Below, piece after piece: positions 50,251 to 54,029 of a DNA stretch of 64,000 bases. Position 1 is the first letter of the stretch. The number at the start of each line of letters is the position of its first letter. The DNA lies in contig NC_052166.1 of assembly GCF_902713615.1 (NCBI RefSeq), forward strand, positions 2,342,961 to 2,406,960, written 5' to 3'. The translations under genes were made by a program, and so were the position numbers. The notes below the pieces were generated by a model that ran no database searches, was not told the DNA's origin, and saw nothing but the letters and a program-made list of their open reading frames with translations. This DNA comes from Scyliorhinus canicula. Its lineage: Eukaryota.

Positions 50251-51129
50251 AGTGCTGTCGGGAGGGGGAGGGGGGCTGGAGAGTGGGGTCGCCGATCGAC
50301 AGCAGGATTATGGAGGAGGACAATATTGTGCTCTGTGATATGGCCGCTGTAATGAGATGCACAGAATATCTGTTAGTTTAACAGAAAGATGATTTATCAA
50401 CAAACACGTGGAATGATAACTAACCAATAACTGTACAGACAATAACCACTAAACGGATTCAGAGAATTCTACTGGAATACTGTGTGACTATCCTCTGATA
50501 CGTCCTACTACCAACCACCGGGTATCTCAAATCACGTGAAGAATATCTGGCGCCACCAGCTGGTTGGAGGTTGCATCACTGAGTATCTACAAAACTGTGC
50601 ACAGGCATATCACCACATCCCCTTTCCTTTGGAAATGTTAATGTTAATAATTAAGTATAACTGTGTCTTACAAAAACATGATCTATAATTACTATTTTAC
50701 ACATGTTATAGATATATATATATATAACTGTGCTTTAATTACCATGATATGCCTAAATAACTTGTCTCTAGTGAACAGCTTGTTGTAAATCTACAGCAGA
50801 ATCGCCCCATTGATCTTCTGGGCTCTTATCAGCTTCCCGGCATCACTTTTGTTTCTGGTACATCGGTTTTCTTGCAGGATTTTGTTTTTTAACCCCATGT
50901 TTAGCCTCTTGACTGGCTGGTTCCTGAAGACCGGTTTCCCTGCTGGCCTTACCTGTATCACCAGCTTTGTTACCTTTTTAACAGAATGCTCTTTTTGCAT
51001 CGTTTTGTACTTTCCGTTTCTGGCCTCTCGGCCACATTGCCGATGTCTTCCTGTTCAGCATCAGAGGTAGGACTCACTGTATCTCCCACTCTCGTCACCT
51101 CGTCACTCCCGCCAAACCACAGGTATCGC

Positions 51130-51830
51130 GTTTCATAGTCGTCCTTACCTAGCTCACCATCTGAGTCTCCGCTTTTCTCATCGAGCTCAGGATCCTCGCA
51201 GATATCATCGTAATAATGGTCATCGGAGTCATTGTAATCTGCAATGGTTTCTCCTGTAAAATACCACAGTGCACACGGAATAATGTGTTCACGCAAAAGG
51301 CCACCCACTTCGAAGTCATCAGCGAATTCCGCTGCAGAATGTTTACTGAACACTCCGTGTTCTGGAACTTCAGGAGGACTGAAGAAGTTGAAGAATGATT
51401 CGGTACGGTCTTCATGACTGTTTTACGAGCACTCCGCCCATTTTGCTTCTGCTTCGTTTTCAGTGTGCCATTTTTTTCCTTCTTCCAGTCGATCTGACAC
51501 CCTGTGCATCCCGTGATTTCCGGTTCGTCAAAGAATGAGAAATCAAACTCGTCAGTCCGCGATTCTATCTGGTCACTTTCGTTACTACCTCATTTGTGAA
51601 ATACTCATTGGGCTCAAACGTAAACTCCAGAGTGAATCTCATTGGCTGTTCAAGCTCTGAACATTTAACGTTCACCTCTTGTAGCTGCTTTAATACGGGC
51701 TCTTCAGGCTCGTGTACGATGTCACTGAGCACATACACGTTCTTAATGACGGCCAACCAGAAATGTGGATTTCCCGTCGGCTCTTCCATCTCTTCATCTG
51801 ATTTGTCATCCTCCGCCCTGACGTTCGCTT
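51130..51830 (-). pseudogene. NAP1L1: Intronless, 5'-truncated, frameshifted NAP1L1-like (nucleosome assembly protein) sequence
   Basis: EEPTGNPHFWLAVIKNV...FTLEFTFEPNEYFTNEVVTK / FDEPEITGCTGCQIDWKKEKN / FNFFSPPEVPE...DFEVGGLLREHIIP..YFTGE followed by an acidic tail. Colinear with remembered NAP1L1 motifs, with at least 2 frameshifts. Confidence 0.88.
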
Positions 51831-52111
51831 GTTTCTCATTGTTGTTCTTGTCCACAATGAAAGACGGAATGATGTGTTTTGTCGTGGACCCATAATGCGA
51901 GCTCACATACACCCAGCATCTCAATCTCTTTCCCACTGTCGTACATCAGCAGTCTCGACTGATTAACCTCCAGCCCATGCAAATCGGACAGACTGAGGTT
52001 GGCCCTCATTCCCGTGTCGAGGTGGCATTTTATCAACGTGTCGCTCAGTATCATGAGGGTCATCCATCTGGTTCTGATGATATTGGGTTTCTGATTATTA
52101 TTGTCACAATT

Positions 52112-52690
52112 GGTAGGGCAGCACGGTGGCACAGTGGTTAGCACTGCTGCCTCACGGCGTCGAGGTCCCAGGTTCGATCCCGGCTCTGGGTCACTGTCCG
52201 TGTGGAGTTTGCACATTAGAACATAGAACATAGAACAGTACAGCACAGAACAGGCCCTTCAGCCCTCAATGTTGTGCCGAGCCATGATCACCCTACTCAA
52301 ACCCACGTATCCACCCTATACCCGCAACCCAACAACCCCCCTCTTAACCTTACTTTTTTTAGGACACTACGGGCAATTTAGCACGGCCAATCCACCTAAC
52401 CCGCACATCTTTGGACTGTGGGAGGAAACCGGAGCACCCGGAGGAAACCCACGCACACAGGGGGAGGACGTGCAGACTCCACACAGACAGTGACCCAGCC
52501 GGGAATCGAACCTGGGACCCTGGAGCTGTGAAGCATTTATGCTAACCACCATGCTACCCTGCTGCCCCATGACTGCGTGGGTTTCTCCCCCACAACCCAA
52601 AGCTGTGCAGGGAAGGCGGATTGGCCACGCTAAATTTCCCCTTAAATGGAAAAAATGAATTGGGTGCTCTAAATTTATTTCTAAAAAGTA
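52112..52690. mobile_element. Nested V-SINEs (a - strand copy ~52217-52565 inserted in a + strand copy)
   Basis: A + strand tRNA head is interrupted by a complete reverse SINE, then the + strand V core resumes. Confidence 0.8.
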
Positions 52691-54029
52691 ATTGTCAGAA
52701 CTGGTCCATTAGTCTGCTTCACTTTTTATGGTCGGACTCATTGTGTCCTTGGTTGAAATGAGATCAATGGAGAACTGTTCTTCAGAGCACATCTCATTAC
52801 CTGCGTTGACTGATCTTGTTTGGTCCACTGTCGGGCGCAAAAAACATTGTTTCGCAAAATGATTTGTGTGCCCGCACTTGGAACCGACTTTTCCAAATGC
52901 CGGACGTTGCCTTGGCCCATGACGATTGCCAAATCTCTGGCATAAAATGACGGACCTGGTCAGCTGCTTAAAATGGCCGCCTGCACTGAGATGCTTTTTA
53001 TTGAACTGCGTCACAGACGGTGCTGGCGTCTCCGGCTATATTGGCATCAAAATGTTTCAAGCTGAGCATACTGATCTTCTCTGCAGCCAGCTCAATCGCA
53101 AGGCAGACCTTGACAGCATTTTCTAATTTCAGGGCTTCCTCACGTAACAATCTCTTCCAGAATCTATCATTCCATATCCCAAACACAATTTGGTGGCGGA
53201 TCATCGATGGCTTTAGATTACTGAAATTGCAGGACTGGGCCCTCAGCCTCAAATCGGTTACAAAGCTATCAAAAGATTCACCAGGATTCTGGGTACACGT
53301 ACAAAATATGTATCTTTCAAATGTTTTGTTTTCCTCCGAAGAGCAATTCCTCGTCGTAGCTCTGGCTTTCCTCTTCTCTATCAAAACCAAAGGTATTTCT
53401 ATTGCTTGAGGACCTGCAGCAACACAATGAGCCTCTCGTCAGGCTGTACCTGCAGGCCAAGGGCTGAAATGGAAAGTCTAAATTGCTGCTCGAAAATGTG
53501 CCAGTTTTCATCTACGTTACCCAAGATTTGAAGCTGGTGAGGTGCCTTTAAACCTTCCATCTCGATCTTTGCCATCGTTTGTTGCGTCGTGTTGCAGATC
53601 GCCGTAGTTCACCAGGTCGGCGGAGGAATCTCTTTTCGTTTTAGGCCTGTTTCGCTTCGACGTCTCTGTCGTTATCTTTAAACATTCTGCACACTTGGTA
53701 CCATGTTATGTTCTGTGTGATGGCTATTGCAATGAGGTACACAGAACATCTAGCTGTTTAACTATAAAGATGATTTATGAACAATCAAATGGAAAGAGAA
53801 ATAAGAGAAAACAATACAAACAAATCAATATTAAATGGATTCAGAGAACTATACGGGAACTACTCAAACTGTGACTATCCACTCAAACGTCCTACTACCA
53901 ACTGGTGGGTATCTCAAGTAACGTGAAGGATGTCTGGGCCACCAGCTGGTTGGAGGTTGTATCATTAGCTATCTACAAAACTGTGCACAGGCATTTCACC
54001 ACATTACTGCACCCCACTGTTAATGGTCA

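Follow-up and report, generated by a model that had tools for sequence, protein, structure and literature searches.

How does a histone-chaperone sequence come to lie between the terminal repeats of a retroelement, and what could it have done there? The question is raised by a locus in a stretch of 64,000 nucleotides of the catshark Scyliorhinus canicula (assembly GCF_902713615.1, contig NC_052166.1, positions 2,342,961 to 2,406,960; here called the window, in whose numbering coordinates are given), where a first-pass annotation had described a long terminal repeat (LTR) element with a NAP1L1-like coding region in the place of pol. The element, located on the minus strand (54003 to 50324), is one heavily decayed copy of a larger family with the layout LTR, primer-binding site (PBS), gag, protease, NAP1L1 core, acidic stretch, ATF7IP piece, basic tail, polypurine tract (PPT) and LTR. 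Two captures of host genes, a single frame across them, independent insertions with 5-bp target-site duplications (TSDs), pol-bearing relatives, selection on gag and NAP, a retained ATF7IP motif and a lost protease motif were observed. Probably, this non-autonomous Gypsy-type family conserved its NAP1L1 and ATF7IP cargo while spreading, likely as a chromatin-engaging module delivered with the particle.

The annotation had left open a single copy or a mobile family, and the latter was found: with overlaps removed (16 checked, 10 counted by hand), the element occupied at least 198 distinct genome places, with the same junction at dispersed loci and different TSDs. A genome DNA search with the window element gave 1,203 candidates, and all 40 that were scored matched; the Pfam NAP model gave 2,051 first-look candidates (144 of 144 scored above the cut-off), and a derived copy gave 967 (40 scored). 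These candidate totals are not copy numbers, but the family comprises hundreds, and probably more than 1,000, copies. Seventy-four NAP-selected loci were examined, 40 from the DNA search (the window included), 20 further ones from the Pfam search and 14 further ones from the derived-copy search. Gag or protease lay upstream of NAP in 71 of them, an LTR was present in 68 and both LTRs in 36, and NAP-bearing copies showed a colinear gag-protease-NAP-tail-LTR order of about 4 kb without pol. The poly(A) or NAP1L1 3' end expected of a processed pseudogene, the other outcome foreseen at first, was found in 0 of the 74.

Among 33 clean-ended loci (of 40 with two LTRs; 2 of the 33 were of the pol type), 19 had a 5-bp TSD matching at 4 or more of 5 positions, 11 of them perfect, compared to 1.8% in a mismatched-pair control. 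The cargo and the rest of the element were thus retrotransposed together. The LTR pairs were 80.5 to 90.6% identical (median, 85%; Kimura two-parameter distance, 0.17; n = 32), and these pairs gave no clear gradient in age from one subfamily to the next. The family is apparently extinct. Two copies 92 kb apart (L056 and L061, on G000:C18) were near-identical and had the same insertions, as in a segmental or assembly duplicate, and L061 was dropped from the models as a near-duplicate. For its part, locus L032 contained a 639-bp LTR-gag stretch duplicated at 95.3% identity (3412-4044 and 6480-7118, oriented coordinates), a duplication far more recent than the family's LTR pairs.

Pol-bearing relatives were found when loci were chosen by gag alone: of 20 such loci (20 of 40 scored), 12 were NAP bearing, 5 were of the pol type and 3 were uninformative. 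L130 had RVT_1, RT_RNaseH_2, Integrase_H2C2 and rve in the Gypsy order of protease, reverse transcriptase (RT), RNase H and integrase, and a genome search with pol gave 1,306 candidates. Pol-type and NAP-type copies had the LTR, gag and protease in common as far as the junction, and the two types agreed once more over the final ∼180 bp ahead of the 3' LTR. Pol was replaced in the family, not interrupted by an insertion, and the NAP-bearing members have no RT, RNase H or integrase of their own; the exchange of these domains for NAP, proposed from one copy, holds across the family in comparison with its pol-bearing relatives. By its TG...CA LTRs, PBS, PPT, TSDs and relatives that share LTR and gag, this is a non-autonomous Ty3/Gypsy-type LTR family, which may resemble the Mag clade.

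The first capture came from NAP1L1, a multi-exon host gene on G000:C20. A basal copy matched five consecutive host exons at 79 to 88%, with the introns absent, and the match began inside an exon, at host T-E-D-E-C-K-W-Q, where it continues the protease end colinearly and in the same frame. The intronless exons, the in-frame mid-exon start and the lack of poly(A) bear out the proposed transduction of a spliced NAP1L1 message into one gag-protease-NAP frame. The captured part starts at human residue ∼147 and comprises the earmuff domain plus the first part of the acidic tail; a predicted earmuff domain is present by Pfam and PDB sequence matches, a derived copy matching human NAP1L1 (PDB 7un3 sequence) with an E value of 2.5e-75. 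Acidic stretches after the NAP core expand in the family. Three copies (L088, L124 and L128) form a separate basal clade (support, 1.0) with an acidic stretch closer to that of host NAP1L1, which is useful for ordering the two captures. A second host NAP gene, likely NAP1L4, lies at G000:C9:127717671-127725418 (57 to 77% to the NAP1L1 query).

A second capture had been missed by the annotation, whose inventory of the cargo held NAP only: in relatives of the window copy, ∼150 codons of host ATF7IP lie between the acidic stretch and the basic tail. The tail alone had no match in the protein collection at near lengths and none in Pfam. In a wider protein search it matched 14 proteins, all of them shark ATF7IP or isoforms of that locus, and BLASTP aligned it with ATF7IP residues 292-439 (P0127) at 45% over 148 amino acids (pairwise E, 1e-22). 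At the DNA level, the host ATF7IP exon on G000:C23 matched 48 loci at 66 to 87% (best E, 6e-78), and the piece was found in 68 of the 74 NAP-selected loci once element-derived probes were added. It corresponds to the acidic region that immediately precedes the SETDB1-binding domain. At the NAP/ATF7IP junction the similarity was 13/17, a level (13 or more) that 17 of 400 random window pairs also attained; the protease/NAP junction was too diverged for microsimilarity scoring.

The ATF7IP piece is followed by ∼190 further codons forming a K/R-rich basic tail; only the last ∼30 codons, together with the 3' untranslated region (UTR), match pol-bearing relatives. For the ∼190 codons there was no usable Atlas match, no match in the 100-kb host NAP1L1 region and none reported in the ∼280 bp of ATF7IP intron compared. 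The tail persists in natural frames of copies of subfamilies A, B and E. Of 83 tails, 36 contained in a sense frame a motif resembling a SUMO-interacting motif (SIM), with a pattern modeled on SIMs of the PML/DAXX type, and none contained it in an antisense frame. ATF7IP is central to the SETDB1-dependent silencing of retroelements (PMC7354471). Four annotated shark ATF7IP isoforms (P0128, P0130, P0131 and P0132; Mustelus, Heterodontus and Chiloscyllium) carry a QRICH1/DUF3504 (tyrosine-recombinase-like) domain instead of the C-terminal FN3, a possible splice fusion to a transposon-derived domain.

In the window copy, the order of LTR, PBS, gag, protease, NAP, PPT and LTR given at first was confirmed by LTR alignment, the PBS and PPT, the Pfam NAP match and the relatives. 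Its features are the following:
53704..54003, minus strand: 5' LTR (TG...CA), 300 bp, 80.5% to the 3' LTR
53694..53703, minus strand: primer-binding site, starting TGGTACC and common to the family (from sequence)
52702..53575, minus strand: gag with several breaks and a zinc-knuckle region (DNA homology to pol-bearing L119 and L130; sub-threshold zf-CCHC in relatives)
52109..52701, no strand: later 591-bp SINE-like insertion, foreign to the family (absent from relatives, repeated in the window)
51847..52108, minus strand: aspartic protease with DTG motif, C-terminal end deleted here (sequence and relatives)
51840..51849, minus strand: site of the ∼120-bp deletion that removed the protease/NAP junction (comparison with relatives)
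51220..51830, minus strand: captured spliced NAP1L1 core, broken; earmuff domain, no dimerisation helix (Pfam, host exons)
51111..51219, minus strand: acidic stretch corresponding to the first part of the NAP1L1 acidic tail, which has expanded in the family (host comparison)
51095..51110, minus strand: what is left of the captured ATF7IP piece, at the site of its deletion, 650 to 825 bp missing (relatives)
50860..51094, minus strand: end of the family's own basic tail (comparison with relatives)
50631..50859, minus strand: last ∼30 codons and 3' UTR, common to pol-bearing relatives (5' end set from its position in relatives)
50618..50630, minus strand: polypurine tract (from sequence)
50324..50617, minus strand: 3' LTR, no target-site duplication left (LTR alignment, end comparison)

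The PBS is presumably of the tRNA-Leu type. The two LTRs were identical at 240 of 298 positions, the most diverged of the 32 pairs measured, and the element ends agreed at 0 of 5 TSD positions, in line with the diverged LTRs and absent TSD recorded at first; poly(A) was looked for in this copy and was absent. Three broken frames matched Pfam PF00956 (E, 2.6e-22, 1.9e-9 and 4.5e-12), the NAP stretch from 51830 to 51220 had a DNA identity of 72.9% with the host NAP1L1 exons joined together, and the DTG motif of the protease lies at ∼52018. Pfam gave zero matches for the copy's own gag and protease pieces, and only sub-threshold ones for those of relatives, so the identity of gag and protease rests on DNA homology to the relatives bearing RT, RNase H and integrase. 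The 591-bp insertion, which separates gag from protease, we take to be of tRNA-derived short interspersed element (SINE)-like type. Comparison with three close relatives placed the ∼120-bp deletion at ∼51845, where the protease end and the first NAP codons were lost, and the 650- to 825-bp deletion at ∼51095, where the ATF7IP piece was lost; the apparent frameshift and the short tail are due to these deletions, i.e., they are products of decay. Thus, the single frameshift first placed at ∼51860 is the deletion at ∼51845, and the tail described as resembling Gypsy pol matches pol-bearing relatives in its last ∼30 codons and 3' UTR, while the rest is the ATF7IP piece plus ∼190 codons, shortened by deletion. 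A 23-bp tandem satellite (66 copies in register; 54004 to ∼55500) adjoins the 5' LTR and could be what erased the TSD.

In the family, natural stop-free frames spanned every junction of gag, protease, NAP and tail. The modal distances from the gag anchor Q-S-C-N-F to the SIM-like motif were multiples of three wherever a subfamily mode was clear, and this held for the anchor lengths even when they changed (150/162/207, 150/147/129 and 177/240). Gag, protease, NAP, ATF7IP and tail form a single reading frame. The host-rooted NAP tree was a ladder of subfamilies, A to E, along which the host-to-copy dS (synonymous divergence; uncorrected counting) climbed from 0.56 to 1.74, and the cargo of about 1.6 kb was never dropped across the five successive subfamilies.

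To measure constraint along this ladder, dN/dS (the ratio of nonsynonymous to synonymous rates) was compared between terminal and long internal branches. The NAP values were 0.71 and 0.35, respectively (P = 3e-8, 81 copies), and the contrast was kept without CpG columns (0.71 and 0.34) and without Pfam-picked copies (0.70 and 0.32) and was reversed in shifted frames (1.46 to 1.62). Gag was the most constrained part (0.78 and 0.14), whereas the protease (0.80 and 0.67) and an LTR control (0.87 and 1.13) showed no significant difference. On one shared 40-copy tree, internal values were 0.15 for gag and 0.33 for NAP, with the protease again not significant, and ATF7IP gave 0.81 on terminal and 0.41 on internal branches (P = 8e-4). 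For gag, NAP and ATF7IP together, the terminal-branch values ranged from 0.67 to 0.81. Purifying selection acted on gag and NAP along the internal lineage branches. The protease motif, for its part, changed from DTG (A and B) to DMG (C), DIK (D) and DPK (E). The ATF7IP 12-mer E-E-I-I-P-I-L-E-K-L-A-P kept 12, 12, 11, 11 and 8 of its 12 residues from A to E, while the identity of its flanks dropped from 60% to 21% (16/79 host residues in D and 17/81 in E).

In the explanation that we favor, a host mRNA would have been captured by template switching in the particle of a pol-bearing parent, and RT, integrase and later also protease would have been supplied in trans. The Gag fusion would package its own RNA and bring the NAP earmuff, the acidic stretch, the ATF7IP helix motif, the SIM-like motif and the basic tail to the cDNA or new provirus, where the cargo might bind histones or SUMO-dependent silencing factors and favor the integration or expression of that copy. 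From these motifs and domains we infer counter-silencing or chromatin targeting by the cargo. A more specific version, which we put forward only tentatively, is a particle-delivered anti-silencing decoy, with short binding motifs taken from ATF7IP, a central component of the silencing machinery, and combined on Gag with a histone-chaperone domain. If so, the conserved EEIIPILEKLAP helix and the SIM-like motif I-V-I-S-S-D-E would mark unstudied functional sites of ATF7IP.

Several observations weigh against a conserved chromatin-engaging cargo. The dN/dS values come from our own three-class codon model with fixed FastTree branch lengths and no CpG term, applied to 81 copies of probably more than 1,000. 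Nei-Gojobori counting between subfamilies was not significant (P = 0.06 to 0.85); its neutral baseline is 0.5 because of transition bias, and the likelihood model was used instead. The contrast was likewise not significant for the tail (0.90 and 0.74, 22 copies) or for ATF7IP in subfamilies A to C alone (0.78 terminal and 0.62 internal, P = 0.36), and the 12-mer was picked by eye post hoc and also anchors the D/E alignment. Only 1 of 7 majority gap blocks in gag was frame preserving, in a raw indel count that is noisy; the others are read as offsetting alignment artefacts, and anchor distances were used in place of shared-indel counting. No intact copy was found among the 74 loci, where the longest stop-free frame over NAP was 471 amino acids compared to ∼1,040 expected from modal lengths; of the two things that the annotation had said would speak against a functional cargo, neutral dN/dS and a lack of intact relatives, the second is seen in these loci and the first is not. 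A helper for the most derived subfamily was not found, pol lying within 4.4 kb in 0 of 16 further gag-picked loci (NAP in 7). Four RNA runs compared with L057 at 80% likeness gave a peak over NAP whose loose ends carry host NAP1L1 letters, and outside it a low mean depth of 0 to 23, mostly of reads less than 90% alike; these runs on L057 gave no evidence of an expressed intact copy.

The captured parts are also incomplete. The dimerisation helix, noted at first as missing from the window copy, is absent family-wide in scored matches, none of the 144 starting before Pfam profile position 31 and most starting at 60 or beyond, and proteins with the NAP fold ordinarily function as dimers (PMC9128123). 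Missing from the ATF7IP piece are the SETDB1-binding domain (ATF7IP_BD, 472-699) and FN3 (fn3_4, 1140-1240; P0127 numbering). Acidic residues of the NAP core fell from 28/31 in A to 15/29 in E, and its net charge went from -12 to +6, while hydrophobic residues were stable (52 to 57 of 60 to 61 across subfamilies), which points to selection on the NAP fold and not clearly on its histone-binding acidity. The lack of the helix and the eroding acidity partly argue against a simple histone-chaperone role.

The same erosion is what would be expected if the cargo were a useless passenger under constraint on its fold only, a misfolded or truncated Gag fusion being harmful to particle assembly or RNA stability. 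Such a passenger would agree with the missing ATF7IP contrast in subfamilies A to C; both donors are plausibly abundant mRNAs, for which two chromatin captures may be chance, and LTR-mediated chimeras of several host genes have been described (PMC5131818). However, no lineage constraint is seen on the protease, which is read in that same frame and whose motif is lost; a short motif within a disordered region has survived between flanks whose identity has dropped to ∼20%; and about 1.6 kb of cargo was retained through five subfamilies. We consider the passenger rather unlikely. The shift of the core to a positive charge, the missing helix and the K/R-rich tail kept in natural frames of A, B and E would also suit a particle or import adaptor, in which the basic core and tail bind RNA or importins or out-compete helper Gag-Pol in mixed particles. 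This would leave the retained ATF7IP helix motif, the SIM-like motifs and the expanding acidic stretches unexplained, however, and appears improbable to us.

In a domestication by the shark, selection would have acted for the host on a single expressed retrogene or a few of them, the other copies being by-products; in its favor, RefSeq annotates three S. canicula copies as NAP1L1, at a 100% match to L084, L083 and L047. However, the constrained branches are those from which many dispersed copies descend, constraint is strongest on gag, none of the examined copies is unbroken and only 2 of 4,403 reads were 99% or more alike to L057, the copy compared; this explanation is very unlikely. A processed pseudogene made by a long interspersed element (LINE) within a dead element, or the segmental duplication of one locus, to which the lack of a TSD in the window copy and the L056/L061 pair might point, is hardly credible given the same junction at dispersed loci with different TSDs, the absence of poly(A) or an mRNA 3' end and the replacement rather than interruption of pol, and for the LINE-made pseudogene the recurring TSD-flanked insertions and the 0 of 74 loci with poly(A) rule it out.

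Sequences of the element type are annotated as NAP1L1 in RefSeq for two catsharks (XP_038646186.1, XP_038676838.1 and XP_038669414.1, identical to loci L083, L084 and L047, and XP_072347442.1 and XP_072353948.1), which is a practical matter for users of these annotations. In S. torazame, one predicted protein (XP_072357097.1) is a gag-NAP fusion, and two proteins combine NAP with the ATF7IP piece; no other gag-NAP fusion was found among the best 150 of 5,068 matches to the S. torazame gag-NAP protein in a representative search. Element-type proteins were found only in these two Scyliorhinus species among annotated proteins, a weak sign of a restricted range because it hinges on annotation. Basal copies share with host S. 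canicula one derived ATF7IP residue that is absent in seven other sharks and sawsharks, and keep the ancestral state at most other S. canicula-specific ATF7IP sites; a capture on the catshark stem is weakly suggested.

Defective transducing retroviruses with gag-onc fusions are helper dependent and carry host sequence in place of pol. Maize Bs1 is likewise described as helper dependent, with pol replaced by host sequence (cited through PMC5131818); the catshark family differs from both in being a germline family persisting through many subfamilies, with chromatin cargo and no growth gene. In animal LTR-mediated retrocopies, partial spliced mRNA replaces internal open reading frames (ORFs), with short similarity at the switch points (PMC5131818). 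These are like the catshark family in their spliced cargo, multi-parent chimeras and occasional further retroposition, but as described there they are young and present at one or a few sites, whereas here hundreds of copies form a subfamily ladder with a conserved Gag frame and cargo selection. The crocodilian endogenous retroviruses (ERVs) CrocERV29 (KIT-ligand) and CrocERV31 (nectin3) are also ancient and multi-copy, with captured host mRNA and reported purifying selection (PMC4299795). According to that account, they are retroviral, number 9 and 6 copies, still have pol and carry a signaling or adhesion cargo in an ORF of its own that lies next to env or takes its place, whereas the catshark family is Gypsy type, has lost pol, has its cargo fused to Gag, took up two chromatin genes and numbers at least 198 copies. 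Family-wide extra coding capacity, mostly of unknown function, is reported for plant and bdelloid LTR elements, but in pol-bearing elements (PMC7264820, PMC5408684), whereas the catshark cargo replaces pol and both donors are identified host genes.

Compared with the donors, the element shares with NAP chaperones (NAP1L1) the earmuff and the start of the acidic tail, but lacks the dimer helix, has eroded acidity and stands behind Gag (PMC9128123); with ATF7IP/MCAF1 it shares ∼150 residues, the SETDB1-binding coiled coil, FN3 and N terminus being uncaptured (PMC12167477, PMC7354471). No report of the catshark family was found in the literature searched, with Repbase, Dfam and supplements, which may list it under a repeat name, outside its scope, and the terms 'nucleosome' and 'NAP1' are absent from the main text of the paper on the catshark genome (PMC11979771). 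That LTR elements capture genes is known, and in the cited accounts the compared cases are few-copy and are described without silencing-machinery cargo. Here, pieces of two host chromatin genes stayed under selection in a high-copy family across five subfamilies, during which its own protease decayed, which makes it testable whether animal retrotransposons build counter-silencing or chromatin-targeting proteins from host parts. The family is, moreover, a natural deletion scan of the ATF7IP disordered region.

Elsewhere in the window, LINE ORF2-like fragments (labeled by reading) lie at 49331-50352 and 23859-25223, the 3' flank of the element falling inside the first, and a 362-amino-acid frame on the minus strand at 56655-57743 reads like the RNase H-integrase of a different Gypsy element, a label likewise given by reading.

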